Source: a virus. Taken from it: a stretch of 64,000 nucleotides of DNA. The notes under the pieces were generated by a model. It worked only from the letters and a program-made list of their open reading frames with translations. It was not told where the DNA came from and searched no databases. Positions 1 through 41,266 of this stretch are shown piece by piece; the stretch's first letter is position 1, and each line of letters starts with the position of its first letter. The stretch covers positions 30,219-94,218 of the IMG/VR virus record IMGVR_UViG_3300037851_000215; one strand, given 5' to 3'. Made by a program: the position numbers and the translations under genes.

Positions 1-3000
1 TTTGTTGATTTAAGGGGAGTGACAGAATAAAATCTCTAAGATAATCTTTTTTAGTTTCTTTAAATTCTTCGTCTCTAAAACGATTACTTATATAATTATT
101 TAGACGTTCTTTTTGTATATCAGATAATATTTCATTTAATGCTTGTCTATAATTATTATATTTATATTTAGCTAATGAAACAATTTTACCATTTATAATA
201 CGATGTTGATTAAGCATAGCAAATAATGTAGTATTTTGTAGATAATGTTCACCAATATCATTCATAAAATACATACTATTTGTACTTAATAAATCTTTCT
301 TTAACATTCCGCTAGTATAATCTTTTTCATTAGTATTTTGAGTTATATCAAAATATTTAATTAAAGCATTAGTTAATGTACCTGATTTTAATTTACCTAG
401 TGTATTAATCATATCAGGAATAGCTGCAATATACATTTTATCTGCTTTAGTTAAATCGGCATTATTGAAATACCACCCAGCAACAGATTCAAGTTGATTT
501 TGTATTTTACCAAATACAATGTTATTTACACCAGCAGTAATATTAAACCACATATTTTTAGCAGAAGAATATTTAATCATAATTTTAGCTATTTTGGTAA
601 AAGTACCTTCATCTATATCAAAATTACCATAATAAATAGCTTCAATCCATTCTGCTAAATGTTTTTCTAAATTAGTACCTTGACCCTTTTTAGTACCAAT
701 TACTGTTTTATCTAATGTTCTACCTGCTAATTTATTTTTTAATAATTCATTTTTACTATTTCGTTTATTAAAATCCATTTGACGTAATCTATGTAATGAA
801 GCATCTATATCAAATTTCATACCCATTTTAGCTTTATATATATTAGCTTCTCGTATAAAATTAGAAAATACTTCATATAGATTATAGTTAATACGTTTAG
901 CATTTAATTCAATATTTTCAGCACGTATTTTTTTATTTTTATCACGAACTTCTGCTAATGAATTAAAACTACCTCTACCAGCTTGTCTTATATCATTTAA
1001 TACATCTTTTTCATAATCTTCTAGTGTTTCATTAAATCGTCTATCTCTAAACTTAATTTCTTCCTCACGTCCTAAAAATTGAACCATTGGAATACCAAGT
1101 ATATAAACAAGTTCATCATTCATACCGACAAATGAATCACTTTTTTTATTTGCAGCATGACTTTCATACCATGCTTCAAGTTTTTCACTGATAGACATAT
1201 TCTCTTTATCAAAAGCAGACATAGTAGGAATAAATCCATCATTCAATATAGTTTTTCTACCAAAGTAATCAGTATATTTACTAATTATTTCAGTAAGTTT
1301 ACTATAAATAGGATCATCTTTAATAGCTTTCCATTCAGGATTTATATATTTATCAGAAGGAGTTTTAAACATACTATCTCCCATTCTAACATATGTTTTA
1401 TCTCCTTTCTTAATGAAATTACGCTTTTTCCATTCGTTAAATTCATATTCAATTAATTCTTCTTGTTTTTGACTTATAACTTTTTGAACTTCTTCATCAG
1501 AAACAGCAGTAATTTCATTATCCCTAAACCATGCAAGAGCACCATTTATATAACTAGGTGTACCTTTACCGTAAGTTTTAGTTAAATATCTAAATCTGTT
1601 AGCTTTATCAGTATAATATTGTTCCCAATTATATTTTTGAACTAGTTTACCTGTACGTTTACCATTTTTAATTTCAAGATATTTAATAAAATCGGCTTCA
1701 GTAATAGCAGTTAAAGGTTTACCTAATTTAGCAATAAGTAAATTTTCAAATTCAACTATATCTACATTACCTTCTCTTTTACCTTTATTCATAGCTATAC
1801 TGAATTTTTTTACTAAATTAGCTACAAATGCATTGTTAGTATCAGATAATGCATCTAACCATAGTTGAACGTAACTTTCATCATCAGCTACTTCAAATAT
1901 CTTACGTAAACCATCTAATATTTCAGGATTACTTGTATAATTTAATAATTCAGCTTCATAATAACTTTCTAATAATTTATTAAATTTATTATTAGCATTA
2001 TCTATTTTAGTACTTAAGTTTTGTAGTTCTTTAATAAGATTATTAATTATACGTTCTTCTTCAATAAAATTATCTCCATCTACAGATGTAAGTTCTTTAA
2101 TATGAACCCACCCCTTTAAAAAAGAAAGTGCCTTTGACATAAAACCAGTAAATTCTTTTCTCTTAATAGGATCATTTATTATATCAGTCATATTAGCATT
2201 TTCATACTCATCTAACCGTATAAGTAAACCACCTTTAAATTTATTATCTGGTTTAGAAAGTAATACATTACTTGCATATTGTAATGTTGCAGTAAGAGCA
2301 GTAGCAAAATTAGCAAGTCCTATTTCTGTAATTTCTCTTTCTAATCCTAATCCTTTAAGCATATCAAATAATTCTTTAGCTTGTTTATTAGCTGTATTAA
2401 TTCTTATAAGATTAGGAAGATTACCATATATTCTCTTAATAAGTTGATCTGCTGTATTAATTGCATTATTAACTGATTGAACAGGAGAAGAAGTATAAGA
2501 AGAAAATTTAATGGAAAGTTGAGGATTATCTGGATATAATTCATTTAATATTTCAGCTAATGCTCTTGCTTGATTTATATTACTAGTTGCAAATTTATCA
2601 GTAAGTACTTTATTTCTAGCATTAATACTTAGTTCACGAATTAATTCAGGATTTTGTTTAGCCCATTCTCTCCAAGCATTAAGATATGCATTCCATTGTT
2701 GTTCTCTAGTAATATTACCTAATGCTGGTTTACCTTTACCTTCCTTAATACTTAAATATCCTTTTACACTTACTTGATAATATTCTTCAATAGACATTTT
2801 ATGAGTAAGTGTACTTAACTGTCCAGTTGTATCATGTAATTGTTCTAATTGTGCACCTGGATTTAAAATAGCATAAAATGCACTAAATCTTTTATCTCCT
2901 GCACTTGATACTTCATATGATTTAGTAGAATATCTTGACCATGTATAATGAGTTCCTTTAGTATTTATATCTATTTCTTCTTCTATTCCACTAGCATTAT

Positions 3001-6000
3001 CATTAGCAACTGCATTATCTAACAATTTGTCAATAGTACCAATGTATTTATATTCAAATTGCTGTAAATCATTAGCAGCATCTAAATGATTGTCATGAAT
3101 ATAAGATATATCCCAACCTTCTTTTGCACTCCATTCTTTTCTAGCAGCAAGTGTACTTAAATCAATCTTATGTGGAGTTCTAGTAATTTGTATATATTCA
3201 CTAGTACCTTGTAATCTAACAAATTGACCTATTTTAAGTTTTTCCCATTTTTTAGCTTCATTACCGTGTCTAGTAGTAGCAGTTCTATGACCGGCTCTAA
3301 CTAAATCTAATGTAGTAGTGTATTCTTTAAGTTCGTCTCTAAACTTACCATCTTTAATACTCATATTCATAGCAAGATCGTTAGGATATACATTTTCACT
3401 AATTATATCTTTTTCACGCATCTTACTAATTAATTCCCTATATATTTCATCAGATGCTATAACAGTACCATCTGGTAATTGATTATTATTTGGAAATATA
3501 CTTTTAGATTCAACTTCATTTTCATTTAATTTAGGAACAGGATAATAATAATATGTACCAGTTATTTGATCATTTTCATCAATATTAACATAGTCAATTA
3601 CTTGTTTAAAAACAATCCATTCTACTTTATCTTTTTCTCTAATTTGAAGTTTAATGAATTTGGCTTTACGTACATTATTCCATGCTCTACTTGTATTTAT
3701 ATCATTCCATTTATTAGCAGGAATAGATATTATTCCATTGTTATTTGGTCTAAATAAAGGTAATTGTATATTTACTTCATCTCCTTGAAAATCACGAATT
3801 TTTGTAAATTGTGCTTCTTTAATTACACCACCATCTGGAACAAGTAAATTATTTCTCCAATTAGTACGCAATATCATATCAAAATAATCAATTCCAAATA
3901 ATGAAGCAATTAATTCATTTATTTCATTTTCTTTAGCTAATGTAAGTTTATTTGCAGTAGCTATTCTAAGTTTACTTTCTAAATGACTACTTAAATTAAT
4001 TCCTTTTTCATTATCTGTACCTTCAATAAATGCTTCTGTACTATTTGAAAAAATACTAACAGGAAGTAATTTACTATATGAATTAAAACCAAATGTAAAA
4101 CCAGATGTTAAATATTCGTATTTAACTAAATTTCTAGCAAGTACTCTTTCATATATATCATCACTATACCATAATGTAGTAAACGACTCAGTCATAGCAT
4201 TTGGAATATCATTAGGTATTAAATTAATTAAATGATATCCATTTCTTTCTATATCTGTAATTAGTAATTTAGTATCTAAATAATTTAAAATATGATTACT
4301 ATTATAATTACGTTGATCTAATAATAATTTAATTTGATTAGCTGCACTAAGTTCTTCAAATGCACTTATATTAGTTAAATCTCTAGTATTTACTTTTAAA
4401 TTTACATCAGTATTAATACCAAGAATTCTATGTTTTTCTGTAGTATTCATAGTATTTAACCAAGGTAAATCTTTAATAGCAGCAGTAGTTAGATATTTAT
4501 TAATTCTATTACTTAACTGTTTATCATATTTAACTTGATTAATATAATTAAATATTTCAGATTTGATATATTTTACTACATCTGTTTCACTTAGAAAATA
4601 ATTACTAAATGCTTTAAGACTTAATAAATTAGAAAATGTTAAAAATTGTTCTAGAATAGGATAAACACTTTCTTTATTTATTCCGAAATATTTAGGATAA
4701 ATAGCTACTGCTGCATTAGTTGTACCAACATCTAATAGACCACGTTCTGCAAATCTATTTATACTATATTCTAGTGAATTGGTAGTAGTAAATGTAGGTC
4801 CAGCACCAATACTATCAGTATTAAAAATATTTACTGCATCTGTAATTGTTTGTGCATAATGTTTATATACTTTAAATGTTTCAAGTAATTGTAATTGATA
4901 ACGTATGTGTTGTTCTAATTGTTCTAATCTAGCTTTATCAGCATTATCGCTTTTTAATATTGCATCTATTTCTTCTGCTGTAGTTGTATTTAAATTATCG
5001 AACAATCTATTAAATTCTATATTTATAGGTGTGTTATTTTTATATCCTAATATACCATATAAATAAGATTGTGCTTCATCACTATATGGAATAAATATAT
5101 TTTTACCTTTACTAATTTCATTATCCCAAGATTGTACAGATTTACCTGTACGTTTATTTATAAGTTTATATAAAATAGTTTGATATTTAGTTTTAATAAT
5201 ACTTATTTCTCTACCACGTTGAATAGTATGTAAATTATCAAAAAAGAATTCACTTAATTCACGTACAATAGGTTGATTAATTAATGTAGTAGATACATCA
5301 TAAGTAGAACCAATACTAACTAATAATTTCCAAATAGGAAGAGTATATTCATTAACATTATTAGGCAATGGTTTCCTACCTGCATCCAATACGTTAGCTG
5401 TAATTTGTGCAGAATATGTATCTATATGTTTACCTAAAACGTTAACAAAAGTATTAGCAGGATTATTAGTTAAATATCGATGTGTTACAATTGCATATTC
5501 TTTATTATTACGTGTCTCAAATCTAACATCCTGTTTGTAGTTTTTAATTAATTCTTTTTTATCTATTTCATTAGTAATTTCATATTCAATAATAGGTAAT
5601 GTATCTAAAACAGTACCAATAAATGGACTATTTCTATCAATATTATTTGCTAAAGTAATTCTAGCAATTTGAGCAATAGCATTAAACCTATCAATAGAAA
5701 TAGTAGTTCCTTTTAGATTAACACTTTGTTGTGATTTATCTCTATATTCTTGCTGACCAGCGAATGTAAGAATATTACTATTTTTACTAAATGGAAATAA
5801 TACTTTATTTATTTTACTATTTATTTTTTGAATATCATCAAAACTAGAAGTAAAAATAGTTTCTAAAAAATGTGCTGGATTAGTGAGAATAGAATAATAT
5901 ATATCTACAATCTGATTTTCTCTAGCACGTTTAGTATTTTGTGCTGAAATACTCCAATTTTCAATTATAGCTTTAACTTTATTTTTCAAAGCTATATATT

Positions 6001-9000
6001 CAGGTGTGCTTTTATAATTTATAAATGCTTCTCCGAAATCAGATTGCGTTTTAGCAAACAATTCTTCATGTAAATCAGTAAGATTATAAAGTAAAATTCG
6101 TTTGTTTTTACCTTTTGATTTAGTAAGTTTAATTTCAATATCACGAATTTTATTTACTACTTGTGTTAATCTAGCATCATTTTGAATATAATTATTTAAT
6201 TCAGTATTTTGTTCTTTATATTGTTTTATTAAATTATTGTAATCTGTTAATATAGAAATAATAGTACTTACATTATGTTCTTGCGATAATACGTGAATTA
6301 AATCTTCTTTACTGTCTAATATTGCAGTTACTCTATTATTTAAATCATTTTCTGTAGTACCTGTTATATATTCAATAGTTGATATTTTATCAGATTTAAC
6401 ACCATCTATAGTTTCATATTTACGTTGTAAATTATACAACATACTGTATACAGTATCCATATCAAAGTCAGAACCTGTTTGAGTAATAAATTCATCAGGT
6501 AATACTATAGCAGGACTGTTACTATCTGGTAAAAAACCAACTACTTTAAAAACATACATACTATATTTAGCTTCAGTAGGAATACGATAACCTATCATAG
6601 TCCTTACTTTATCTGGTATAGTATTAATATCAACTAGTTCACCCTCTTTATAAAAATATTTACTCCATCTAGGAAGTAATACTTCTGCTTCAATTATTTT
6701 TACACCATTTTCATCAAATGTTATATTTGATCGTAATTTAAGATCATTGCGTGAAGTAATTTCATTATGCCAATTTATTCCAGTAGTATTTTCAAGTTCA
6801 GATTGTTTTACTCCTTTCTTTTTATTCATAAATACAGATGACATCTGAGCAGCATGAACTCCAGGAAATTTCTGATTTGTAACACCGTTTGTAATAATAC
6901 TTGTTAAAAGATTTTCAAATTTATTTACAAAAGGACTAAAGAAAATAGGAAGATTAGCATAACCATTATTACCTATATTTAATGAATATACTACGTTTTT
7001 AGGTAAACCTCTATTTATTGCTTCTTTCTGTAATACTTCTAATATCTTTTCATATTCTATTTCACCTACAATGTTACCATTATTATCAATACTAACATCA
7101 AATGGTAACATAGTCTTATTTGCACTATGCCATATATTATTATTAAGTAAATCAAAATATTGAGTTTTTAAATCTTTACCTAATGTTTCAACACCATTTA
7201 TATTATATTTAGTATTATCATTTATATTTAAAATAATTTTCTTTGCTATCTGTCGTCCTAATGTATTTACTTCTTCCAATATATGATCTGGAATTTCTAA
7301 TTGCATATGAAGTCCTTTGTAATTATAAGGACGTTTACCTAAAGTAAGTTCATTAATAATATCGTTATCATCTAGTAATTTACCTTTTTTATCTGTTACA
7401 GTACCTATATGTAATGAACCTACTTTTTCAGCACTTGCAAAATTAAGTTGTCCAATTCCAACCTGTTTCATTAATTTATTAATAGTAGAAAGATCTAGAT
7501 CTTTAATTAAATCAGGAGTTAATACTATTTCTGCATTTTTAATTTGAACAGGAACCATTTTCTGCAATTCATGTGAATATTCAAAATCATAAAAAAAATT
7601 CTTTTGAATAGCAGCAAATTTAGAAATTTCATCTCTATTTAAAGGTGCTTTATCTCTAACTTTGTCAATAATATCTTTATATGAATCATATAAACCAAAA
7701 CCTTTAATTCTATTTATAAATTCTTCAAAAGTTATTAAAGATACTGAGTCAGCACTATCATTTCTTAGATAAGGGGATGTTATATTATATATCTTTAATT
7801 CTATAGCAGATAACTTAGGTATATTATTATCTATCTCTTCATCAGTGTATACTTTATTAAGTTTATTTATACGATATGTAGTAGTACCATCTGGATCTAA
7901 TATCTGATGTGTCATACGTACTAATTCATTATATATTTTAGATTTTAAAACTACATCTGATACAGTACTAGCATAAAATACACCAGGATTACTGTTAGAA
8001 AGACCATTAGCCAATACTTCACCAGCACGTTTGTTTAAGTCGGTTTGTGATATATAATCGGCAATACTACCATGAAATAATCTAGTTTGTTCTATATTAA
8101 ATAGATATGTATTTAAAGCATATTCTAATATAAATGTATTATATGTTTTATTTTTTAATAATTTATTAAGATTATCACTATAAACTACATCTCTATTTTC
8201 ATTGCGTAAATAACTATTACTAATATAATCATAATATATGCCTAATTTAGAAATAGCTGTATTAGTTTGTTGCTGAATAAATCTAAGTACATAATTTTCT
8301 AATAAACTTTTAAAATTAGTACCATTCATATCACTAGATAGTGCAACAGCTAAACTAGGACTATTAAGTAAGTGTTCAGTAAATGATAAACCATTTAATT
8401 TAAAATCATTAAAGGTAGTCATTTTACCTTTATTTATAACACTCATATTTTGTAATGAAAATACATTACCACTATTAGCTAAATCAAGTTCTAATTCATT
8501 ATTTTCATTTAGTTTAAATGATAAATAATTCTTATTTTGATTTTCATCTAATTTATAATGATAATATTTTTGAGTAGATGTACTTACATCTGCAATATTA
8601 GATTTTAATTTAACTTTACCATCTTCTATTATAACACTACCATCTTCATTTAATTCAAATAGAATTTCTTTAGCAGTTTGCATTGCAATCATTTCATCAA
8701 TGACTACATTAAATAATGCTTTAAAAATAGGAGTATCTTTTATTTTATTTAATCTTTCTTCATTAGGTATATTAGCTGATAGAATACTATAAAAATTGTT
8801 ATTTAATTCAATAATAGGTACTTCAAACAACATAGTATGTTTTCTATCAGATGGATTAAGTAAAGGCATTATAGCAGTTTCTTTACCTACTATTTCCTTT
8901 TTACTATTATATTTATATCTACCACCTGCAAGATAATAAACTAAACTTTTAAGTGTCCAATCAAATCTAGCTAAATCTGAATATTCAGTACCTTTATTAT

Positions 9001-12000
9001 CATCACGATTTTTACTACCTTGATATACAAAATTCTTAAATATAGATAGATTATGTTTATTAATACTATTATATCCTAATGGTATTTTTTTACCTTTTTC
9101 TATAGTATAGTTTAATATACCACGACCTTGTTCAATTAAATTACTGTTATCTATACGATCCCCCCATAAAATAAGAGAATGCTGATTACTTGGAACAAGC
9201 GCATATTTAGAAAGAAAAGCAAATATAGATTCATCAGTACCATTACGTAGTTCTTCAAAGAAATTACTAATAAAGCTAGGATTTCTAGGATCGAATATTA
9301 AATTTCCTTTTGTATTAATAGAACTATGATTAAAATGATCTATTCTAAGAAATTTAACTACATCAGCTAATTCACGTAATCTACCAAATTGATTAAAAAC
9401 TAATTTATTGTTTTTATTATAAAGTTCAATAAATCCATTAGCTTCTTTAGCAAATGGATCACTTTTAATATAAAGAAGTGGATTTAATAGTTTATTTATT
9501 ATATTATTACGATTAAGATTATATTGATGCATTATAGTATCAACATCTATCTCAATACCTATTTTATCAAATAACATAGATAACTGTTCAGCAGTTTGAT
9601 CAGTTATAACTGTAAAATTACGAGTTTGTACAAATAATGCTTTATATGCATCATTCCATTCTTTAATCCAAGTATCATTAAATATATTGTTTTCAGCTCT
9701 ACTTATAATAGTTCCAATCCATTTATTAGCAGTAACATATGAAAATGAATTTCTATTACCACTATCTAAATCGATCTCATTACCTAAATAAGTAGTTCTA
9801 TTTAAATCTATATATGAGTCAATAATAGCTTTATCATATTGAGTAAACCATGTATTAAGTAAATCTGGATCACTTTTAAGTTTTTGCCAAACTTGTAATA
9901 ATGATTTACCTATTGGATGTTTACTATTAGATGCAAAATTAAATAGAATATCTAACATTTCTTGCTTATTTAAAGCAGTACTCATTAAATCTCTAATTTT
10001 ACCATCTAATTCATTATAATTAAGATAGTTAGCAAACCCTGTTGGAGTTTCAATATTTGATTTAAATATATAATTACCTTGATTATCTATAGTAATATTA
10101 TTAGGATCAATCTCAGGAGTAGTATTAATTAAATTTTTAATTCTATCACTAACTGTTAAAATAGGATGTTGTGAAATAGCTTGATTTTCATCCCAACTTT
10201 TAGATAGATATTCTACTTCATCTTGATAATCATCTATTTCATGAATATTATATCCATTATTTTGAGAAAGTTGAACTTTAAATAATTTCCAAAATGCATC
10301 ATTATTTCTAACTTCATCACGAAGTTTAAATAATAATTCTTTTTGTGAATTAGAAAGTTGTCCTAATTCAGCCGCTTTACGACCTTTTCTACCTATATTA
10401 GCAAGTATATCTTGACGTATTTTATTCTCAGCAATATCTTTTACTTTAAGATTTTTATATTCATTACTAATTTCAATAAAAGCAGCTGTCATTAAACTAA
10501 TAACATTTCTTTCTTCTTCTTCAGAGAAATTAGAACCTGTTTGTTCAGTATTAAGTGTAGAAAGATAAGAAGAAAATTTAATAGTTTGTAAATCACGTTC
10601 TTCATTAATTTCTACTTCCCACCAATCATTTTCATATTCATCAGTAATACGTTGTGCATTATATAGCTTTTTAAGAATATTACCTATACGATTTTCATAA
10701 AATGCTTCAATAGGTTTGAGTTTTTCTATACCTTGTGATTTTAAGTCTTGTTTTTCTTTTATTTTATTTTCTAATATATATTTAACGTTTTCATTATATA
10801 ATTCAAAAGCTTCATTTTTAATAGTGTTATATCTATTATCAAATTCATTTTTAGTTATTTCTAACCCAGATTTATAATATTTATCACCTTTAACACTATG
10901 TGTTTTATAATAATGTTCTGTTAATCCATCTTCATTACTATCAAATTTATTAGGATTTTGTAAAGTTGGAAATTTATCAATAGTGGCCTTATCGTTTTGT
11001 AATAATTCAATTTCTTTATCAATTCTTCTTATCTCATCAGCAATAGTTCCATGTCCTTCAATCTTAGCAGCAGTTTCACCAGTAGGAAATACAACTTTTT
11101 TAAATTCACGTAAAGCACTATCTTGAACTATAGTTTTAATAAAGAAATTTATCCAATTACTTTCTTTATTAAGAAGTTGAAGAAATTGATTTTTAGATAT
11201 ATCTTGTTCAGTTAATACTGCATATTTATTAAAACTTTTAACAGCTTGTCCTGTATCAAAATATCTTCCTGCTTGTTCATTTGAAATAGGTTTTAATACA
11301 GAATGATATTTACTTGTACCGATAAAATTATCATCTTCATCATAATCATCAGTAATTTCTTGTTCAATTGTTTCTAAAAACCATTTTTCTTCATTTGTTT
11401 TAATTAAACGATCTCCATCAGATTCTCTTAAATCAAATATTTCTTCAGCTACTATTCCTGTTAGTATATCAATATCTCTAGTTTTCTGAAATTCAGATTG
11501 AACTTCAAGAATACGTCTAATATTAATAGTTTGTTGTACTCTTTCAGTATTTAATTCAAATTCTTTATCATATTCTTCTTTAGTAATTTCTTTTCCATCT
11601 TTAGTAAATTTTGATGTATTATTAACAACATCTATATCTATATTAATATTAGATATTGTTTCAGATCTAATATCACTTCTAAACCATCCTATGCTATTAG
11701 TAGGAATACCTCTTCCACCAGGATCTTGTGTAAAAGCAGCATGAGATTGCATAATAGGAACTATTTCAGGTGTTCTAATATCATATTCACGATAATTAGT
11801 TCCACCTGGAGCAGTTAAATTTTCATAATCAGCAGAAGGTAAGCTACCAACATGAGCAATTAATCCACCAGCACCATCATATTCTCTATCACTATAATCA
11901 AATCGTTTTCCTAAATTAACTTCAATAGAATAAGAAAGTGAACTAGATAAATTTAAAATAAGTTCATCTAAATTAACATCCTTAGTATTACTTTGTAGAT

Positions 12001-12271
12001 TAAATAATTGTTTATAACTACTAAATCCACCTATTTCATTTAATGTTTTCTCAATAGTCCAATTATTTTTAGCACCTTTACTAAATATTTCTTTAGCTCT
12101 ATCAGAACTAAGTAAATCAATTACTTTTAATCCTGCATTAATTGTATATTGATCTAAAGCAGGAGTACTAGTAAAAGATGAAAATTTATTCTGTGATTGT
12201 TGTTTTAAATAACTTTTTAATTCATTCATTGAATTAAAACGCATTCCCTTATATGTAGGTACACAAGCCAT
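1..12271 (-). CDS. Giant virion-packaged DNA-dependent RNA polymerase polyprotein (>=4090 aa, 3' end outside window)
   Basis: Absent from ORF track. ATG at 12271 (MACVPTYKGMRFNSMNELK...). Every stretch I translated by hand is open in this frame, down to the window edge (...ETKKDYLRDFILSLPLNQQ), and the track calls no minus-strand sub-ORF here, implying no internal stop. Beta'-like MIGYRIPTEAKYS and catalytic TQTGSDFDMD (DFDMD at 6455-6469); beta-like segment IQKNFF...PVQIKNAE. Confidence 0.93.
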   Translation of the reverse strand, partial: MACVPTYKGMRFNSMNELKSYLKQQSQNKFSSFTSTPALDQYTINAGLKVIDLLSSDRAKEIFSKGAKNNWTIEKTLNEIGGFSSYKQLFNLQSNTKDVNLDELILNLSSSLSYSIEVNLGKRFDYSDREYDGAGGLIAHVGSLPSADYENLTAPGGTNYREYDIRTPEIVPIMQSHAAFTQDPGGRGIPTNSIGWFRSDIRSETISNINIDIDVVNNTSKFTKDGKEITKEEYDKEFELNTERVQQTINIRRILEVQSEFQKTRDIDILTGIVAEEIFDLRESDGDRLIKTNEEKWFLETIEQEITDDYDEDDNFIGTSKYHSVLKPISNEQAGRYFDTGQAVKSFNKYAVLTEQDISKNQFLQLLNKESNWINFFIKTIVQDSALREFKKVVFPTGETAAKIEGHGTIADEIRRIDKEIELLQNDKATIDKFPTLQNPNKFDSNEDGLTEHYYKTHSVKGDKYYKSGLEITKNEFDNRYNTIKNEAFELYNENVKYILENKIKEKQDLKSQGIEKLKPIEAFYENRIGNILKKLYNAQRITDEYENDWWEVEINEERDLQTIKFSSYLSTLNTEQTGSNFSEEEERNVISLMTAAFIEISNEYKNLKVKDIAENKIRQDILANIGRKGRKAAELGQLSNSQKELLFKLRDEVRNNDAFWKLFKVQLSQNNGYNIHEIDDYQDEVEYLSKSWDENQAISQHPILTVSDRIKNLINTTPEIDPNNITIDNQGNYIFKSNIETPTGFANYLNYNELDGKIRDLMSTALNKQEMLDILFNFASNSKHPIGKSLLQVWQKLKSDPDLLNTWFTQYDKAIIDSYIDLNRTTYLGNEIDLDSGNRNSFSYVTANKWIGTIISRAENNIFNDTWIKEWNDAYKALFVQTRNFTVITDQTAEQLSMLFDKIGIEIDVDTIMHQYNLNRNNIINKLLNPLLYIKSDPFAKEANGFIELYNKNNKLVFNQFGRLRELADVVKFLRIDHFNHSSINTKGNLIFDPRNPSFISNFFEELRNGTDESIFAFLSKYALVPSNQHSLILWGDRIDNSNLIEQGRGILNYTIEKGKKIPLGYNSINKHNLSIFKNFVYQGSKNRDDNKGTEYSDLARFDWTLKSLVYYLAGGRYKYNSKKEIVGKETAIMPLLNPSDRKHTMLFEVPIIELNNNFYSILSANIPNEERLNKIKDTPIFKALFNVVIDEMIAMQTAKEILFELNEDGSVIIEDGKVKLKSNIADVSTSTQKYYHYKLDENQNKNYLSFKLNENNELELDLANSGNVFSLQNMSVINKGKMTTFNDFKLNGLSFTEHLLNSPSLAVALSSDMNGTNFKSLLENYVLRFIQQQTNTAISKLGIYYDYISNSYLRNENRDVVYSDNLNKLLKNKTYNTFILEYALNTYLFNIEQTRLFHGSIADYISQTDLNKRAGEVLANGLSNSNPGVFYASTVSDVVLKSKIYNELVRMTHQILDPDGTTTYRINKLNKVYTDEEIDNNIPKLSAIELKIYNITSPYLRNDSADSVSLITFEEFINRIKGFGLYDSYKDIIDKVRDKAPLNRDEISKFAAIQKNFFYDFEYSHELQKMVPVQIKNAEIVLTPDLIKDLDLSTINKLMKQVGIGQLNFASAEKVGSLHIGTVTDKKGKLLDDNDIINELTLGKRPYNYKGLHMQLEIPDHILEEVNTLGRQIAKKIILNINDNTKYNINGVETLGKDLKTQYFDLLNNNIWHSANKTMLPFDVSIDNNGNIVGEIEYEKILEVLQKEAINRGLPKNVVYSLNIGNNGYANLPIFFSPFVNKFENLLTSIITNGVTNQKFPGVHAAQMSSVFMNKKKGVKQSELENTTGINWHNEITSRNDLKLRSNITFDENGVKIIEAEVLLPRWSKYFYKEGELVDINTIPDKVRTMIGYRIPTEAKYSMYVFKVVGFLPDSNSPAIVLPDEFITQTGSDFDMDTVYSMLYNLQRKYETIDGVKSDKISTIEYITGTTENDLNNRVTAILDSKEDLIHVLSQEHNVSTIISILTDYNNLIKQYKEQNTELNNYIQNDARLTQVVNKIRDIEIKLTKSKGKNKRILLYNLTDLHEELFAKTQSDFGEAFINYKSTPEYIALKNKVKAIIENWSISAQNTKRARENQIVDIYYSILTNPAHFLETIFTSSFDDIQKINSKINKVLFPFSKNSNILTFAGQQEYRDKSQQSVNLKGTTISIDRFNAIAQIARITLANNIDRNSPFIGTVLDTLPIIEYEITNEIDKKELIKNYKQDVRFETRNNKEYAIVTHRYLTNNPANTFVNVLGKHIDTYSAQITANVLDAGRKPLPNNVNEYTLPIWKLLVSIGSTYDVSTTLINQPIVRELSEFFFDNLHTIQRGREISIIKTKYQTILYKLINKRTGKSVQSWDNEISKGKNIFIPYSDEAQSYLYGILGYKNNTPINIEFNRLFDNLNTTTAEEIDAILKSDNADKARLEQLEQHIRYQLQLLETFKVYKHYAQTITDAVNIFNTDSIGAGPTFTTTNSLEYSINRFAERGLLDVGTTNAAVAIYPKYFGINKESVYPILEQFLTFSNLLSLKAFSNYFLSETDVVKYIKSEIFNYINQVKYDKQLSNRINKYLTTAAIKDLPWLNTMNTTEKHRILGINTDVNLKVNTRDLTNISAFEELSAANQIKLLLDQRNYNSNHILNYLDTKLLITDIERNGYHLINLIPNDIPNAMTESFTTLWYSDDIYERVLARNLVKYEYLTSGFTFGFNSYSKLLPVSIFSNSTEAFIEGTDNEKGINLSSHLESKLRIATANKLTLAKENEINELIASLFGIDYFDMILRTNWRNNLLVPDGGVIKEAQFTKIRDFQGDEVNIQLPLFRPNNNGIISIPANKWNDINTSRAWNNVRKAKFIKLQIREKDKVEWIVFKQVIDYVNIDENDQITGTYYYYPVPKLNENEVESKSIFPNNNQLPDGTVIASDEIYRELISKMREKDIISENVYPNDLAMNMSIKDGKFRDELKEYTTTLDLVRAGHRTATTRHGNEAKKWEKLKIGQFVRLQGTSEYIQITRTPHKIDLSTLAARKEWSAKEGWDISYIHDNHLDAANDLQQFEYKYIGTIDKLLDNAVANDNASGIEEEIDINTKGTHYTWSRYSTKSYEVSSAGDKRFSAFYAILNPGAQLEQLHDTTGQLSTLTHKMSIEEYYQVSVKGYLSIKEGKGKPALGNITREQQWNAYLNAWREWAKQNPELIRELSINARNKVLTDKFATSNINQARALAEILNELYPDNPQLSIKFSSYTSSPVQSVNNAINTADQLIKRIYGNLPNLIRINTANKQAKELFDMLKGLGLEREITEIGLANFATALTATLQYASNVLLSKPDNKFKGGLLIRLDEYENANMTDIINDPIKRKEFTGFMSKALSFLKGWVHIKELTSVDGDNFIEEERIINNLIKELQNLSTKIDNANNKFNKLLESYYEAELLNYTSNPEILDGLRKIFEVADDESYVQLWLDALSDTNNAFVANLVKKFSIAMNKGKREGNVDIVEFENLLIAKLGKPLTAITEADFIKYLEIKNGKRTGKLVQKYNWEQYYTDKANRFRYLTKTYGKGTPSYINGALAWFRDNEITAVSDEEVQKVISQKQEELIEYEFNEWKKRNFIKKGDKTYVRMGDSMFKTPSDKYINPEWKAIKDDPIYSKLTEIISKYTDYFGRKTILNDGFIPTMSAFDKENMSISEKLEAWYESHAANKKSDSFVGMNDELVYILGIPMVQFLGREEEIKFRDRRFNETLEDYEKDVLNDIRQAGRGSFNSLAEVRDKNKKIRAENIELNAKRINYNLYEVFSNFIREANIYKAKMGMKFDIDASLHRLRQMDFNKRNSKNELLKNKLAGRTLDKTVIGTKKGQGTNLEKHLAEWIEAIYYGNFDIDEGTFTKIAKIMIKYSSAKNMWFNITAGVNNIVFGKIQNQLESVAGWYFNNADLTKADKMYIAAIPDMINTLGKLKSGTLTNALIKYFDITQNTNEKDYTSGMLKKDLLSTNSMYFMNDIGEHYLQNTTLFAMLNQHRIINGKIVSLAKYKYNNYRQALNEILSDIQKERLNNYISNRFRDEEFKETKKDYLRDFILSLPLNQQ
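2495..2512 (-). repeat. 18-bp direct repeat copy encoding IKFSSY (identical copy at 10565-10582)
   Basis: Plus-strand ataagaagaaaatttaat at both positions, same reading frame of the RNAP gene. Confidence 0.85.
10565..10582 (-). repeat. 18-bp direct repeat copy encoding IKFSSY (identical copy at 2495-2512)
   Basis: Plus-strand ataagaagaaaatttaat; a related NKFSSF peptide lies at 12173-12190. Confidence 0.85.
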
Positions 12272-28533: not shown

Positions 28534-31500
28534 AATACATTTGTTACATCAATGTCAACATTAGATATACGTAATTGATAATTATTACTATCATTTAAAT
28601 ATTTCATTCTAGCAATAACAAATTTAGTAATAAATTGTGATTTATCATACCAGTTTTTAGATAAATTAAGTGAAGCAGTTACTAAATCAAAATTATTATC
28701 TAAAACTGATAAATTAGGAGAAGTTAAATAATCTTTAATATCATTAAATATCCATTCACCATCTTGATATAATGTATTGCCTATTTCCTGTAATACATAT
28801 GGAGCTGTACTACCATATGTATATTCTTTTTTAACTACTGTTATTTCTTCACTACATAAATTTTTAGAATAAAATAATAAACTATGAATTGTACTATTCC
28901 AATAATTAATGCCAGATTTATATAAATTAGAAGTCCATTTAAAAGACTTTAATAAAAATCTTCTATTTTTATTATCATTAAATATCCAATCTATAATAGA
29001 ATAATTATAAACAGAATTATAATAACCATAGTTACCAGTAAACATTTTTCTAAAAATAGTATTACCACCCGTTTCTATAGCATACATCATTCCATTACTA
29101 TTCCATATATATTTATCAGGAGTATAAGAATGAAATGCAATCCAAAGTCCAGTTTCAAATTGAAAACTTAAAGTTAAATTTAAAATAATACTAGTATTAC
29201 TATTTTTAATAGTAACTAATAATCTTTTATATAAATCATCATATCCTAATATAACACCACTACCTATTGTTTCTTTAGTGTCGAAAGCCATAGTAGTTTT
29301 TACAGTAGTTCTAAACCAATCTTCAATACCTAATTTACTTATTTCATTTAATTTATCAGAAATTTGATAAACACTACCTCTATTCAAATCAACTACTATA
29401 AGTCCATATGGTGTAAGAATAGTACCTTCTCTATTCCATGGTTTAATATAATTACCATCAGCATCGTGTAATTCTTCTAATGGTCTATCAAACATATCAG
29501 TAGATTTAAGAGCAATATCAATATCAGTTGCTCTTAATTTGTCCATTACTATTCCTCTATAAATACTAAATTCAGTTTGAATATATGTAATATAATCATT
29601 ACCAAGTGCTTTATATATAGCACCTTTATTTGTAGGAATATCGAAGTAATCTAATATCTTATATTTATGCCAATATTTAGAACTACTTTCTAATGGTTGT
29701 GGTATAGAACTTTGAATACGATTAGGATAATAAGTATTTATATTAGTTAAATCATCATCTATACTATCTTGTCTTAATGTATTTAATAAATGATATAAAT
29801 TGCTATAAATATAATAATTAGCAATACCTGCATCTTGCATTGCTTGAATATATGTTTGTACATTTTCATTATTAAATACAGTAATATCAGTTAAAGGAAA
29901 AAACTTTTCATATTCGTTTTCACCTTCATATCTCATACCAGTATTAAGAATACTTTCAACAGGAAAATACCAAACAGAAGGAACTATATCTTCATCATCA
30001 TTAAGCACAAATCTTAATACAGAATTATGACCAACATAGTTATCCCCCCCATATAAAGAAAATGCACTAGTAGCACCGAGACTTTTAATAACACCTGTAC
30101 TAACTAATTCTTGATTACTAAAATTGAGATAAACATCATTCTTAATATTTATAAAATTAACTAAACGTTTATCAAAGCTACCACTTTCTGTTTCAAAATA
30201 ATAACAATTTTCTTTATTTTCGTTACTAGGTACTGTTGCAGTACTATAAGCAGGTAAATATTTTATAAGATTAACTTCACTATATACAGCTGTTTGTAAT
30301 GTATAATTAGTTATTTCTTTAATATAAGCACCATCTGTATAATCAGTTGATTGTAAATTTAATTCAGCTTTAATATGTGATGGTATTATATTAAGATTAT
30401 TAGCCATACTATCAAATCCATGAAATCTATATCCTATACCATCTTCAAATGCTAAACTTTGATCTAACATAAGTTGATCGTTAAGAGTACGTTTAGCATA
30501 TAATATTTCCCAACCATCTACAACAGCAGATAAAGAATTTCTTATAGCAATCGGTATATTATTCCAATCTAATGCAATACGAAGTCCTAATATTTCTTGA
30601 TTAGAGGTAGCTTCGTATTCAGATATAGTACATCCATTACCTTGTTCAATAGATACAACAAATCCACCATCGCTAGCTGCACTTAAACAAGATACTTCTA
30701 TTGTAATATAATCTCCTGTATTTAATTCAATATCTTCATTACAAGATAAAGTTATTAATTCAGGTGTGGTAGTTGCTACTTGTGATAGATTTACTATAGT
30801 AGACTCAGTATAAGTGCTATCACTATTCTTTTTATATTTTTTAATTAATAAATATGCGCTACCTTTAGTACCACTATATTCTATTACTTGATAATCTATA
30901 TCAAAATTAAGATTTATAGTAGTATTATATTTAGCAGTATATGTATTTACTAAAGATATACCTGGACCAGCTATTGTATAATCTCCTAGAGAACCAACTT
31001 TATTATTAGTTAATGCTCCATAATAACCATTTGTACTATAATTAAATTCATCTGGTGTTAATGATATAGTATTAACTAATGATGCATCATTTACTGTATG
31101 TACTACACCACCTTTCCATCCATGTAATTGACCAGCACTTGGAAATCTATGATGACGTACTTTATTATTACCTAAATTATCACCATATTTATTACCATAT
31201 GTTTCATTTTCATTTTCCCAAAATCCCATTTTACCATAATAATTACCTTGTTTACTAGCACTACTAGTAAGTTTGTAATTATCTATAGCATCACCATCTA
31301 CAGTAGTTTGTGCACTATTTTCAGTTCCAAGTGCTTCTCTACCAGGAATATGATAAATTCCATAATATCCACCAGTTTTAAGTCTAAGACCTAAATATAA
31401 AGCATATACTTCATCACTTCTAAATCCACGTTTATTAAAAATAAAAACACTATCTTTATAACTATTTTTTGTAGTAGATAAAGATGCTACTGTATCATTT

Positions 31501-32753
31501 ACCCAGTTAACAGTTAATATATCAGTTTTACATGTACCATCTGTTGCACTATCTAAACCTGTTGTTGTAGTATATGTAAATACACTAGGACCACTAACAG
31601 TAACAACAAAGTGTCCATTATATGCAGCTACACTCCAACCATTCATTGTAACTATATCATTGTTAGTTAAATTATGTGCTGCACTAGTAGTTACAGTTAC
31701 AGTTGTACCATTTCTAGATGCACTTGAAACAGATATAGTTCTAGGAGTTAATATATTATCATATATATCATCTAAACTAAGTTTAGTAGGTTTAGTTAAA
31801 TTATATAATCGAAGTCTTTTATTAGACTGTGTAATACTCTTTACTAATGAATATGCTGGTGAAGAAATAACTACTTCATTTAAATTAAATAAAGTCAAAT
31901 TATCTAAATCATCTATAATTACATTTACACCAGTACTTGCAATTCTATATCGTTTAGTAATAAAACATTGAATTGATTGTTCAGTTTTTTGAATTACGGC
32001 AATTTTGAAATAAGAATAGTCAGTGTCTAAATTACTTACATTAGCAATTATTGCTTTACTTGTTTGAACAAGACTAGCATTACCTTTAAATTGTTTATAA
32101 GATGTTAAAGTATCATCTAACGTAATAAAAATTGGATTAGAAATAACACCAAAATTAGTATTAACTTCTGGTTCTAATTCATAAGTTAAAGCCAGAAAAT
32201 ATGCAGCAGCAGGAAGATTACCACCATTAATTACACCACCAGTAATTGTTCCTTCTGCTAAATTAAAATTATTATGTTCAAATTCAGGAAATAAATATAA
32301 TTGTTTTAAATCTGCATCAGATGATATAGTTATAGCAGCACTTGTATTCATTATCATTGGTTTGTGAAAACCAGTAGTCCAAGCTATAATTAATTCACCA
32401 TCAGAATTATAATAATATACCCCTTCTATATAAATTCCTACATACACAGAAGGATTAATATTAAAAAAAGTAGTACCACCACTAATTAAATCAACAACTG
32501 TAGCAGTGGCACTTACTTTTTTAATATATGTTTTAGTATTTGAAGTATTCCATAGAAATAAGATAACTTCATTAGGAGTTACAATTCTTCCAATAAATTT
32601 ATGATTAGTTAAAGTAGCAATGTACTCACTATCACCAGGTTCATTTTCAATTTCATCAAAACCTCGACTTAATAGTACATTTTTAGCATATGCCCATGTA
32701 CCAGCAGCACTATCACTAAACTTACTATCTAATCGTAAACCTTTTAATTGCAT
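28530..32753 (-). CDS. Tail muzzle / stabilisation protein (1407 aa)
   Basis: Size, synteny and motifs (KRGFRSDEVYALY, YHIPGRE, MGFWENENETY, VRHHRFP, WIAFHSYTPD) recalled from crAss-like tail stabilisation proteins. Confidence 0.8.
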   Translation of the reverse strand: MQLKGLRLDSKFSDSAAGTWAYAKNVLLSRGFDEIENEPGDSEYIATLTNHKFIGRIVTPNEVILFLWNTSNTKTYIKKVSATATVVDLISGGTTFFNINPSVYVGIYIEGVYYYNSDGELIIAWTTGFHKPMIMNTSAAITISSDADLKQLYLFPEFEHNNFNLAEGTITGGVINGGNLPAAAYFLALTYELEPEVNTNFGVISNPIFITLDDTLTSYKQFKGNASLVQTSKAIIANVSNLDTDYSYFKIAVIQKTEQSIQCFITKRYRIASTGVNVIIDDLDNLTLFNLNEVVISSPAYSLVKSITQSNKRLRLYNLTKPTKLSLDDIYDNILTPRTISVSSASRNGTTVTVTTSAAHNLTNNDIVTMNGWSVAAYNGHFVVTVSGPSVFTYTTTTGLDSATDGTCKTDILTVNWVNDTVASLSTTKNSYKDSVFIFNKRGFRSDEVYALYLGLRLKTGGYYGIYHIPGREALGTENSAQTTVDGDAIDNYKLTSSASKQGNYYGKMGFWENENETYGNKYGDNLGNNKVRHHRFPSAGQLHGWKGGVVHTVNDASLVNTISLTPDEFNYSTNGYYGALTNNKVGSLGDYTIAGPGISLVNTYTAKYNTTINLNFDIDYQVIEYSGTKGSAYLLIKKYKKNSDSTYTESTIVNLSQVATTTPELITLSCNEDIELNTGDYITIEVSCLSAASDGGFVVSIEQGNGCTISEYEATSNQEILGLRIALDWNNIPIAIRNSLSAVVDGWEILYAKRTLNDQLMLDQSLAFEDGIGYRFHGFDSMANNLNIIPSHIKAELNLQSTDYTDGAYIKEITNYTLQTAVYSEVNLIKYLPAYSTATVPSNENKENCYYFETESGSFDKRLVNFINIKNDVYLNFSNQELVSTGVIKSLGATSAFSLYGGDNYVGHNSVLRFVLNDDEDIVPSVWYFPVESILNTGMRYEGENEYEKFFPLTDITVFNNENVQTYIQAMQDAGIANYYIYSNLYHLLNTLRQDSIDDDLTNINTYYPNRIQSSIPQPLESSSKYWHKYKILDYFDIPTNKGAIYKALGNDYITYIQTEFSIYRGIVMDKLRATDIDIALKSTDMFDRPLEELHDADGNYIKPWNREGTILTPYGLIVVDLNRGSVYQISDKLNEISKLGIEDWFRTTVKTTMAFDTKETIGSGVILGYDDLYKRLLVTIKNSNTSIILNLTLSFQFETGLWIAFHSYTPDKYIWNSNGMMYAIETGGNTIFRKMFTGNYGYYNSVYNYSIIDWIFNDNKNRRFLLKSFKWTSNLYKSGINYWNSTIHSLLFYSKNLCSEEITVVKKEYTYGSTAPYVLQEIGNTLYQDGEWIFNDIKDYLTSPNLSVLDNNFDLVTASLNLSKNWYDKSQFITKFVIARMKYLNDSNNYQLRISNVDIDVTNVL

Positions 32754-32754
32754 T

Positions 32755-33234
32755 TTATTTACTTTTTTCTACAATTGGAAGAATACCTTTCATTTGAGCA
32801 GGAGTAATTGAAAATGGAATATACTTTTTAGGAATGGGCTCAAATTTAAATTCACTATCTTTTTCTAGAAATTTAGTAAAATCAGATGTTAATGTTTCAT
32901 GCTCAATAATAACATCTTTATACTTTTCTTTTAGTAAATTAATTTCCTCATCAAATTTAACTGGATTAGAAATAGCAACTCCTGTCTTAGTGGTTAAATA
33001 TGTACCATTTTCATTTTTTATTGCATATTCATGTAATATTTTATCAGATGCAATTAAATATGCTTTATAATCATCTGTAGCTTTAGGACGTAATTTTTCA
33101 ATATCTCTAATCATTTTTTCTACATCTTCTTGTATAATAGCAAGACGATATGAAAATTCAATAGTATTGTTATTAGATAAATTAGCACATGCTACAATAC
33201 CTCTATTTAAAGAGTATAATTCATTTCTTGTCAT
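32755..33234 (-). CDS. Hypothetical protein, possible tail-fibre assembly chaperone (159 aa)
   Basis: ORF track; helical, follows fibre genes. Confidence 0.5.
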   Translation of the reverse strand: MTRNELYSLNRGIVACANLSNNNTIEFSYRLAIIQEDVEKMIRDIEKLRPKATDDYKAYLIASDKILHEYAIKNENGTYLTTKTGVAISNPVKFDEEINLLKEKYKDVIIEHETLTSDFTKFLEKDSEFKFEPIPKKYIPFSITPAQMKGILPIVEKSK

Positions 33235-33395
33235 TACGATAATAATATAGTTAATACTATTATACCTACAATAAATCCAATTGTAATAAGAACCATTTTA
33301 GTTCTATTATTTTTAATTGGATTAGTACCACTACCTGTACCATTATCATCTATTGGAGCAGGTGAATCTGTTGAATTGTCTGTGCGTTTTGCCAT
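33234..33395 (-). CDS. Small membrane protein (53 aa, single C-terminal TM helix)
   Basis: Below ORF-track cutoff: MAKRTDNSTDSPAPIDDNGTGSGTNPIKNNRTKMVLITIGFIVGIIVLTILLS; stop overlaps next ATG (TAATG). Confidence 0.75.
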   Translation of the reverse strand: MAKRTDNSTDSPAPIDDNGTGSGTNPIKNNRTKMVLITIGFIVGIIVLTILLS

Positions 33396-33422
33396 GATTA
33401 ATAATTTAAGTTAATATTAAAA

Positions 33423-34793
33423 TTAAGGTGGTGTTATTGCATCAAGTGTAACTATTACTGTATCTGTACTATATATACCATAAGAACAAGTAACATTAAC
33501 TTGACAGAATACATTATCTGATATTGTAACATTACCACTACCAGCTGCATTTGAATTATGAGTTATACTATATGGTATAGATGTACCTGATAAACAATCA
33601 ATTGTTAAATATAATCTAATTGTTGTATTTCCTTCTAATTCAACATCACCGGTGTATTCATATGCTTCAAAGTTGCTATTAGCTTCAGAAAGAACAACTT
33701 GTACTGCAATAGGAGCTGGTTTAGCTCCCTGCACAACTTCAATTTCAAATTCATTATGATCTGTATCATGAAATACAAAAGAAGAAGGACCAATAGCTGA
33801 GTAAGTATTATTGTTAGCTGTAGGAAATATACGTATTTCAGCACCAGAGCTATATGGACCACCACCAACAGTCATATCAGCACCGCCACTATCTTTAATC
33901 CCAAATCCTGTTGGTATTGTATCTATATGCCAATTATCATTAGATGTAACAATGTGTGATACTTCATAATATGCATAACCACCTTCATCCCAATCCCAAC
34001 CAAAACTAGTTTCATCATCTGGAGCTGATATCCAATGAGTTAAAGTAAAAGTACCTTGTGATTTAATAGTCTTACTACCCCAAGTTTCACCAGTTCCACC
34101 AGGAAATTCAATATATCCACTAGGTTCAGAACTTGTCCAAGATGTAGCGCTTGCAGATGATATAAAAAGTTTCCATGTAATGGTACCTGGATCCATTGAA
34201 ACAGGACTTGGAAAACCTAAGAAAGTAGGATTATCTGGATCACTTAAATCTAATGTTAAGTCAAAAGATAAATTTGTACCATCTGAAACAGTACCAAATG
34301 TTTTATAATAACTACCTACTTTTACGCCCCAATAATATGAACCATATCCTAAATCTGATAATAAAATTCTAACACTAGCAGATACAGTATTCATATTAGC
34401 AACAAAAGTTGCAACACATCCACTACCTGTTATATTTGGTGTTATAGATGCTGGAACAACTGCATTTCCACTAGTACACCATATAACAGGTCCAGCTACA
34501 TCTTTATCATGTTCATATCCTCTAAAATCACCTAATCTAACTGGTTCATCAGGACTACCACCAGGACTACCCCCTTGTGGTTGTAAATAATTCCAATTAG
34601 TTGGTAAATTTAAACCATATTTACTGTTACTACCAGCAGGCCAATTTGAACCATCTCCTGCATCTCTAATTGGTTTATACCTAGACCATTTATTTATATT
34701 AGCAGATGTGCCTAATGCAAATAGAGCATAAGTACTTTCTCCTAAAGTATTCCTTACAGTAACAATATCAATATTCGTAGTTCCTAATGCCAT
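33423..34793 (-). CDS. Tail fibre/receptor-binding-associated protein (456 aa)
   Basis: N-terminal INKWSRYKP...PVRLGDFRGYEH module resembling Bacteroidota phage fibre-associated proteins, then beta-rich Ig-like segments. Confidence 0.6.
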   Translation of the reverse strand: MALGTTNIDIVTVRNTLGESTYALFALGTSANINKWSRYKPIRDAGDGSNWPAGSNSKYGLNLPTNWNYLQPQGGSPGGSPDEPVRLGDFRGYEHDKDVAGPVIWCTSGNAVVPASITPNITGSGCVATFVANMNTVSASVRILLSDLGYGSYYWGVKVGSYYKTFGTVSDGTNLSFDLTLDLSDPDNPTFLGFPSPVSMDPGTITWKLFISSASATSWTSSEPSGYIEFPGGTGETWGSKTIKSQGTFTLTHWISAPDDETSFGWDWDEGGYAYYEVSHIVTSNDNWHIDTIPTGFGIKDSGGADMTVGGGPYSSGAEIRIFPTANNNTYSAIGPSSFVFHDTDHNEFEIEVVQGAKPAPIAVQVVLSEANSNFEAYEYTGDVELEGNTTIRLYLTIDCLSGTSIPYSITHNSNAAGSGNVTISDNVFCQVNVTCSYGIYSTDTVIVTLDAITPP

Positions 34794-36811: not shown

Positions 36812-37556
36812 TAATACCTGTTTGTCCAGTTATACTTTCAGATAGATTTATATTATTATCATTTCTAAAATCACCATTTATAGGTCTATCTGTATCAATT
36901 AAAAATGTTCTAAGTAATCTACTCATTTCAGCTCTATCCTCAGGATCAAATCCACTAGCTTGGTTCATAGCTTTCTTAGATTCTACTTCCCACATTAGAT
37001 AAGGATTTGTAATAGGATTTTTATTTTCTAATGAATAAATAGGATGTTTATGTCCTCGTCTAAGCATACAATACATAAGATACCATCCTATTGCATCTTG
37101 TATTATAGAATTATTTGGAATTTTAGGTAAATATACTTGCAGTTCTTGTTCCCATTCAATAGCTGCAACTTGATAATATAATCTAACAGTACCTTCTTCA
37201 AAAGAAAGAACTAAATATCCATTCTTTATACTATAACTTTCGGTACTTAAATATTCACATTCAACAGTAGGTTGTTTAATAGGATTAACAACATTTAATC
37301 TTTTAATTAAATAACCATCATATTCAACACCTAATATACGTTTAATATCAGATGGTACATTATCAGGTAGTTGTGCAATATGATCTACTACATCTAAATC
37401 AATATAAGTATCTTCATAAGAAGATATAAACAATAATCTATCTAAAGCATCAGCTATCCATAAAGGAGCACGTGATATCCAATCACTATAATCAATATCA
37501 AAGTTATTATCAATTCTAGCAATAACTTGTTTTGCTGATGTAAGTTGATAAATCAT
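36804..37556 (-). CDS. Tail ring/tubular protein (250 aa)
   Basis: Synteny upstream of fibres and muzzle; SAKQVIARI...WIADAL N-terminus and LPKIP motif resemble crAss-like ring proteins. Confidence 0.6.
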   Translation of the reverse strand: MIYQLTSAKQVIARIDNNFDIDYSDWISRAPLWIADALDRLLFISSYEDTYIDLDVVDHIAQLPDNVPSDIKRILGVEYDGYLIKRLNVVNPIKQPTVECEYLSTESYSIKNGYLVLSFEEGTVRLYYQVAAIEWEQELQVYLPKIPNNSIIQDAIGWYLMYCMLRRGHKHPIYSLENKNPITNPYLMWEVESKKAMNQASGFDPEDRAEMSRLLRTFLIDTDRPINGDFRNDNNINLSESITGQTGISE

Positions 37557-37559
37557 ACT

Positions 37560-37591: not shown

Positions 37592-37600
37592 CAAAATAGT

Positions 37601-41263: not shown

Positions 41264-41266
41264 TAC

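Follow-up and report, generated by a model that had tools for sequence, protein, structure and literature searches.

A conserved domain with a predicted NADAR-like fold embedded in a giant crAss-type RNA polymerase protein

We investigated a small domain encoded in a 64,000-nucleotide window of viral DNA that comprises the 3' two-thirds of a 94,218-base-pair virus record with 28% G+C content (IMG/VR record IMGVR_UViG_3300037851_000215), where the domain is built into a giant protein with a crAss-type virion RNA polymerase (RNAP) core. This domain, residues 3109–3246 of the protein, is discrete and conserved far beyond chance, belongs to the unannotated family phrog_9995, and, as supported by structural modeling, has a NADAR-like fold. 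On balance, we consider it probable that the domain is a divergent NADAR-fold ADP-ribosyl N-glycohydrolase that is delivered with the virion polymerase and acts, most likely, on base-linked ADP-ribose of phage DNA or RNA, with catalysis, substrate, packaging and injection all predicted from conserved residues, the modeled structure and characterized relatives.

A preliminary description of this locus, made from the sequence, had quoted a series of peptides as parts of a NADAR/YbiA-like domain inside a virion RNAP. These peptides are present, in the order given there, at residues 3111–3244 of the minus-strand translation of window positions 2–12271, which comprises 4090 residues of the 4410-amino-acid (aa) host protein; the first, WSRYSTKSYEVSSAGDKRFSAFYAIL, begins at residue 3111 (window position ~2940), and the last, ...ARALAEILNE, ends near residue 3244 (~2540). 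A PHROGs scan of the whole translation yielded a single strong match, between residues 3109–3246 and positions 2–123 of the 124-position profile phrog_9995, a family of unknown function (E = 3.6e-31). Searching 5.8 billion proteins (E ≤ 1e-3), we identified 195 homologues of 83–265 aa, most of them 110–140 aa long and thus consisting of the domain alone, along with 70 longer proteins in which it is fused to other sequences. In an alignment of 114 family members, 11 columns are invariant and 24 further columns are at least 90% conserved, resulting in the consensus blocks GYEVSSxGDKRFSAFYA, DGRTIExxYQxDVKGY, GKGKPP, LWxEYLxLWxxWA and LTDxFATTxINQARALAxILNE. The copy in the window retains all conserved family positions and carries, relative to the consensus DGRTIE, a lineage-specific insertion in the N-terminal hairpin, where the model has strands at 42–44 and 53–55 (with a predicted local distance difference test score, pLDDT, of 80–88). 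The coordinates of the domain and the insertion are:

2534..2947, minus strand: NADAR-like domain of the phrog_9995 family, residues 3109–3246 (full-length PHROG match, homologues, AlphaFold2 model)
2792..2854, minus strand: lineage-specific insertion of ~20 residues in the N-terminal beta-hairpin of the domain (consensus compared with the query)

The AlphaFold2 model built from the 114-sequence alignment (pLDDT 91.5, predicted template modeling score 0.87) contains five helices (62–70, 76–79, 90–107, 109–118 and 135–146) and short strands (19–21, 42–44, 53–55 and 123–125) located at the N-terminus and ahead of the last helix, as has been described for the NADAR fold (PMC9503650). We compared this model with 48,161 PDB representatives, among which there are only three NADAR entries, using VIA-align, and these three occupied the top three ranks: the NADAR of G. 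lovleyi (8bat; Z 8.5, root-mean-square deviation (rmsd) 3.8, 126 aligned residues, 21% identity), E. coli YbiA (2b3w; Z 7.2, 119 aligned) and the Phytophthora NADAR with ADP-ribose (8bau; Z 7.1). The fourth rank dropped to Z 4.4, leaving the NADAR entries as the only ones above Z 5, and a further comparison agreed. In a Foldseek search of the PDB, the only near-significant match was again 8bat (E 0.026, probability 0.87), followed by one with E 1.3, and in BFVD, a collection of predicted viral structures, four family members came out on top, with at least 14 proteins annotated as NADAR or YbiA in ranks 5–50. What argues for a NADAR fold is that the three entries are cleanly separated from the rest, that the match extends over almost the full domain and that two methods agree, rather than the height of the Z values. 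T4 gp30.3 has been assigned to NADAR on the same type of evidence, involving the same three PDB entries (PMC11825919). Structure prediction combined with a Foldseek/DALI-type comparison, which the preliminary description had proposed as a check of its claim, thus matched the NADAR fold, with 8bat on top by both methods; the claim stands at the level of fold (8bat, 2b3w and 8bau at ranks 1–3), whereas the link at the sequence level escapes statistical detection.

In NADARs studied by structure determination and mutagenesis, the functional set combines two residues of the first core helix, a Glu and, seven positions later, a pyrophosphate-binding Lys, with a charged residue at the last strand (PMC11543638, PMC11125620, PMC11825919), that is, E43/K50/E125 in Phytophthora PnNADAR, E88/K95/D171 in the E. 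coli C7 protein and E36/K43 in T4, with the last-strand residue varying by subfamily from Glu in YbiA to Asp in the DarT1-linked BC4488 type and His in gp30.3 (PMC11125620). The candidate counterparts in the window are:

2786..2788, minus strand: codon GAA of E3162 (E63 in the 151-aa piece), a candidate catalytic Glu located in the first core helix
2762..2764, minus strand: candidate phosphate-binding Lys K3170 (K71), at the end of the first core helix
2597..2599, minus strand: D3225 (D126), an Asp immediately past the last predicted beta-strand

E3162 is Glu in 113 of the 114 members, stands at the start of helix 62–70 and is paired by hhalign with YbiA E48. Both K3170 and D3225 are invariant (114 of 114 in each case); the latter directly follows the modeled strand 123–125 and is placed by a low-confidence hhalign path opposite YbiA D130, not E125. 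In addition, a Gly-Lys-Gly-Lys-Pro loop with the invariant K3179 (K80) and an invariant Trp occur at the positions taken in NADARs by the Gly-Arg loop, which binds the pyrophosphate, and by W89. From these correspondences, we infer that E3162, K3170 and D3225 are the candidate NADAR active-site residues. The invariance of polar S, D, E, K, K, D and Q in stand-alone proteins of ~120 aa points to an active site rather than a spacer. The preliminary description had singled out the Glu of SIEE, and indeed the first Glu of this motif (E3162) is conserved, whereas the second is not.

The protein in which the domain is embedded is encoded by an open reading frame (ORF) of 4410 codons on the minus strand (positions 29257–42489 of the full record) and located at the end of the structural module. 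The corresponding features of the window are:

2..12271, minus strand: window part of the giant polymerase polyprotein gene, which runs 962 bases past the window start
5972..7774, minus strand: crAss-type RNAP catalytic region, residues 1500–2100 (tblastn)
6455..6469, minus strand: DFDMD metal-binding motif of the crAss-type RNAP core, residues 1935–1939

In tblastn searches, residues 1500–2100 matched proteins annotated as 'putative RNAP catalytic subunit', with 31–35% identity and E-values of 1e-60 to 1e-67, including those of crAss002, Carjivirus communis and others, and the DFDMD motif within this region conforms to the catalytic motif DFDxD of crAss-like virion RNAPs (10.1101/2020.03.07.982082). 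Judging by these matches, the protein contains a crAss-type virion RNAP core, confirming what the preliminary description had stated about the host of the domain. The homologue from phage phi14:2 is packaged in the virion, enters with the DNA, is responsible for early-gene transcription and uses single-stranded DNA (ssDNA) templates in vitro (10.1101/2020.03.07.982082), and the polymerase proteins of crAss001 are capsid cargo. Because of the homology to the polymerases of phi14:2 and crAss001, and because its gene lies where the structural module ends, the 4410-aa protein is predicted to be packaged in the virion and injected into the host.

Directly upstream of the NADAR-like domain, the protein contains another small module:

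2987..3385, minus strand: ASCH (PUA-like) domain, residues 2963–3095 (AlphaFold2 model, structural matches)

For the AlphaFold2 model of this module (pLDDT 89.7), E. coli YqfB was the best match by both structural methods (Z 10.3, rmsd 2.6, 94 aligned; Foldseek E 4e-4, probability 1.00), followed by other ASCH entries with Z 7–8 and then by the YTH and EVE modified-base readers; the Pfam ASCH model matched sub-threshold only, in 5 of 18 homologues. With 107 homologues, mostly within giant proteins, ASCH represents a second mobile module, and members of its family occur elsewhere as fusions with AlkB-type oxygenases, SLOG and DUF7831. The order of ASCH followed by the NADAR-like domain recurs in a close relative (L006), in an unrelated locus (L071) and in a protein of 317 aa (P0392). 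In P0394 (254 aa; compare P0324, 241 aa), the DUF7831 match falls into two stretches and an ASCH-like domain precedes the C-terminal one, an arrangement that suggests one module inserted in another.

The Pfam-confirmed fusion partners of the phrog_9995 family comprise DUF4326, SLOG (YAcAr and cpYpsA), Macro, a canonical NADAR (P0308) and Kinase-PolyVal, as well as DNA polymerases of family A (PolA) and family B (PolB), a fragment of a T7-type RNAP and a superfamily 1 (SF1) helicase. DUF4326, SLOG, Macro and NADAR have been described as an ADP-ribose-processing network, and such domains are predicted to be often virion-packaged (PMC9503650). At the best 80 loci of an IMG/VR survey, the domain resides in a small ORF in 45 cases and in ORFs longer than 1000 aa in 31, and DFDxD is present in the same ORF for at least 17 of 30 long ORFs. 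The domain lies downstream of DFDxD in some lineages and far upstream or at the N-terminus in others, and this variation in position identifies it as a mobile module that has been attached to crAss-type polymerases on repeated occasions. In three IMG/VR contigs of 55–98 kb (L057, L061 and L076), the domain occupies the N-terminal part (residues ~70–227) of a DFDVD-bearing giant protein instead of following the polymerase core and is, therefore, an independent placement.

Outside the giant polymerases, phiKZ-like jumbo phages encode the domain as a small hypothetical protein (PHIKZ082.1), and N4-like phages of Achromobacter and Delftia have it as a gene of its own, located in the early region at the left end of the genome. 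In Achromobacter phage Axy24 (L002, 1804–2193), gp05 consists of the domain alone and is found among small early genes lying upstream of gp16 and gp18, which are annotated as RNA polymerase genes. The crAss-like phage cr118_1 carries the domain inside the 4946-aa gp14 (L001, NC_055872.1, 12001–12450). The annotation of cr118_1 gp14 as 'exonuclease V', which probably comes from an SF1 helicase module, hides a polyvalent giant protein.

Under the reading that we favor, E3162 and the last-strand D3225 would hold the distal ribose, K3170 and the Gly-Lys-Gly-Lys-Pro loop (K3179) would hold the pyrophosphate, and the bond between ADP-ribose and the nucleobase would then be cut. Directly preceded by an ASCH domain of a type that reads modified bases and built into a giant RNA polymerase carried in the crAss-like virion, the domain would reach the cell together with the genome, such that ADP-ribose could be cleared from phage template DNA, nascent RNA or both, ahead of phage gene expression. 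The adjoining modified-base reader and the polymerase and helicase fusions tilt the predicted substrate toward nucleic acids over soluble signals. As noted in the preliminary description, NADARs reverse the ADP-ribosylation of guanine by DarT1 (PMC11543638), and T4 encodes one, gp30.3, now named AdfN (PMC11825919). DarT1-modified guanine in ssDNA, the target proposed there, is one plausible case, and NADARs act also on guanosine in RNA and on cytidine adducts. A more specific version of this proposal, which we regard as possible albeit doubtful, casts the ASCH and NADAR-like pair as a polymerase-tethered eraser of base lesions on the ssDNA template or the nascent transcript; this would amount to transcription-coupled de-ADP-ribosylation, a recurrent modular invention of crAss-like phages with a free-standing early version in phiKZ-like and N4-like phages.

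Several observations weigh against the assignment of the domain to NADAR and against the proposed role. Pfam searches with the query and the 114 family members returned no NADAR (PF08719), even at E ≤ 10; NCBIfam yielded nothing for either the NADAR-like or the ASCH domain; a hidden Markov model (HMM) of the family gave only chance matches (E > 0.5) and no NADAR among all PDB sequences; and hhalign comparison of the family with 40 YbiA-like NADARs was insignificant (probability 0.16, E 0.37), with the global mode failing. The spacing between Glu and Lys is +8 in most members, as opposed to +7 in canonical NADARs (and in P0015 and P0308), the Asn of FSNF is replaced by an invariant Ala (FSAF), and the His of EHY is absent. 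The residue equivalences are derived from alignment and motif order, not from three-dimensional superposition, and Z values of 7–8.5 are moderate, with the tool warning that such values may reflect a common arrangement only. Furthermore, packaging of the 4410-aa protein is extrapolated from its relatives, and, to our knowledge, no DarT or other ADP-ribosyltransferase has been described for the host.

Other sequence searches gave a similar picture. Neither the whole 4090-residue translation nor the domain produced a NADAR or any credible match in Pfam; phmmer searches of the PDB sequences with the giant protein and with the NADAR-like domain retrieved nothing; the protein-language-model search of the ESM Atlas provided no usable match; and the Pfam models Macro, DUF4326, DUF7831 and NADAR had no match in the virus's own genome. 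A six-frame search of T4, cr118_1 and Axy24 with PF08719 was equally negative, and the T4 gene thus missed, 30.3 (L005:2308–2766, minus strand), encodes the proven NADAR AdfN (PMC11825919), so the silence of Pfam weighs little for phage forms. The 20 columns chosen by hhalign place RFSAF...DGR...IExxYQ of the family opposite FSNF...DGK...SEHYFQ of YbiA, the same FSAFY and SIEEYYQ motifs in which the preliminary description had noticed a NADAR resemblance. At a relaxed threshold, the family and the YbiA-like NADARs are colinear over 147 columns, such that GKGKPP stands opposite GRdRkkP, the invariant Trp opposite W89 of YbiA and ALAxILNE opposite mLGxILME; this alignment is consistent with homology and by itself is no evidence for it.

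The failure of every sequence method to detect NADAR, the moderate Z values and the language-model search without a usable match would all be expected if the likeness of fold were convergent or too weak to signify homology, in which case the domain could be a non-catalytic structural or nucleic-acid-binding module of an ejected polyprotein. We find this quite improbable given that the three NADAR representatives, and nothing else, exceed Z 5, that the invariant polar residues of the stand-alone members indicate an active site, and that the alignment with YbiA is colinear over the whole domain. The fold and the active site could also be real and the chemistry unrelated to ADP-ribose, with the domain working together with ASCH as an N-glycosidase or hydrolase on another modified nucleotide or base. 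This possibility is brought up by the riboflavin-pathway N-glycosides that YbiA-type NADARs also cleave, by YqfB, the nearest structural relative of the ASCH domain, being an N4-acetylcytidine (ac4C) amidohydrolase, and by the ways in which the motif deviates from that of canonical NADARs (Ala replacing Asn, a missing His and a spacing of +8). However, the Macro, canonical NADAR, SLOG and DUF4326 partners all indicate ADP-ribose chemistry, and the basic Gly-Lys loop and the invariant Trp lie at the pyrophosphate-binding place of NADARs, making such a chemistry highly improbable in our estimate.

The same network of partners can also be invoked for a NADAR-fold hydrolase of soluble ADP-ribose derivatives, such as immune signals, toxic metabolites or breakdown products of nicotinamide adenine dinucleotide (NAD), and injection of such an enzyme would blunt NAD-based signaling defenses. 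SLOG, Macro and DUF4326, to which the family is fused, belong to the network interpreted by Iyer et al. as dealing mainly with low-molecular-weight ADP-ribose derivatives in phages (PMC9503650), and the fusion with a canonical NADAR (P0308) suggests two specificities dividing labor. Against this stand the repeated fusion to the template-handling crAss-type RNAP, T7-type RNAP, PolA, PolB and SF1 helicase, the recurrent tandem with ASCH, whose family is fused to AlkB base-repair oxygenases, and the activity on base-linked ADP-ribose of all NADARs characterized so far. We therefore deem a soluble substrate unlikely and favor base-linked ADP-ribose.

Phage NADARs and their anti-DarTG1 role are already known, and virion packaging of NADAR, Macro and Nudix domains has been predicted in general (PMC9503650). 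Among the known systems, the DarT1-associated NADARs of the BC4488 type (8bat, E. coli C7) provide the best structural match and have a functional set to which the candidate catalytic Glu, Lys and last-strand Asp of the domain described here would correspond, Asp being the residue that marks the BC4488 subfamily at the last strand. The domain differs from these proteins in its size (~120–140 aa versus ~190–220 aa), in having FSAF instead of FSNF and, in most members, a Glu-Lys spacing of +8, and in its location inside a phage polymerase without a neighboring DarT toxin, and the two show no detectable profile relationship. The phage AdfN proteins (T4 gp30.3, Bas32 and Bas60; PMC11825919) are similar in being phage-encoded, in having a NADAR fold by structure prediction whose first core helix contains a conserved Glu and Lys, and in evading the Pfam NADAR model, as seen for T4. 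However, gp30.3 has a His at the last strand and the canonical E-x6-K spacing and is a free early protein rather than part of a virion protein; moreover, its activity on DarT1-modified DNA has been demonstrated, whereas that of the domain described here is predicted from sequence and model. With E. coli YbiA (PF08719; Z 7.2), the domain shares the colinear series GD..FS[AN]F, [ST]/I-E..[YF]Q, a basic Gly loop, the Trp and a C-terminal L-small-x-I-L-[MN]-E helix, but it fails the Pfam model, has Asp in place of the last-strand Glu and lacks the riboflavin-pathway context.

The overall organization resembles that of polyvalent phage proteins and packaged ADP-ribose domains (PMC9503650), in that small conflict or repair domains are part of a giant multidomain protein for which entry together with the DNA is predicted. 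That work emphasizes myoviruses and MuF or portal fusions and makes no mention of crAss-like phages, whereas the carrier here is a crAss-type virion RNA polymerase. The crAss-like virion RNAPs (phi14:2 gp66; crAss001 gp47/gp49/gp50) are comparable in having a DFDxD motif and a clearly homologous catalytic region, but phi14:2 gp66 has 2180 aa as against 4410 aa in one chain here, where the inserted ASCH and NADAR-like modules separate the polymerase core from ~1150 aa of C-terminal sequence.

Reversal of base ADP-ribosylation on DNA and RNA is a newly recognized front of the conflict between phages and bacteria (DarTG1, AdfN), and most of what is known so far about the phage side comes from free early proteins found in T4-like phages and a small number of other coliphages. 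No paper that connects crAss-like phages with NADAR, or that names the phrog_9995 family described here, came up in our searches, and none of the libraries annotates it. This unannotated family, which spans phiKZ-like jumbo phages, N4-like phages and many crAss-like phages and in the latter is built into the polymerase predicted to be injected, thereby acquires a predicted fold together with an activity that can be tested. In the human gut, no viruses are more abundant than the Crassvirales. Should the domain be active, crAss-like phages would bring a ready-made de-ADP-ribosylase with their genome, and their Bacteroidota hosts would be implied to use nucleic-acid ADP-ribosylation as a defense.

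One further feature of the giant protein concerns the short motif KFSS[YF], which we considered as a general cassette boundary and rejected, as 30 related giant ORFs, that of the close relative L006 among them, contain no [KR]FS[ST][YF]. In the window, two identical copies of the 18-bp word ATTAAATTTTCTTCTTAT (2495–2512 and 10565–10582, minus strand) encode the peptide IKFSSY, the first immediately following the NADAR-like domain and the second located after the N-terminal module, and a third such motif, KFSSF, occurs at residue 29.

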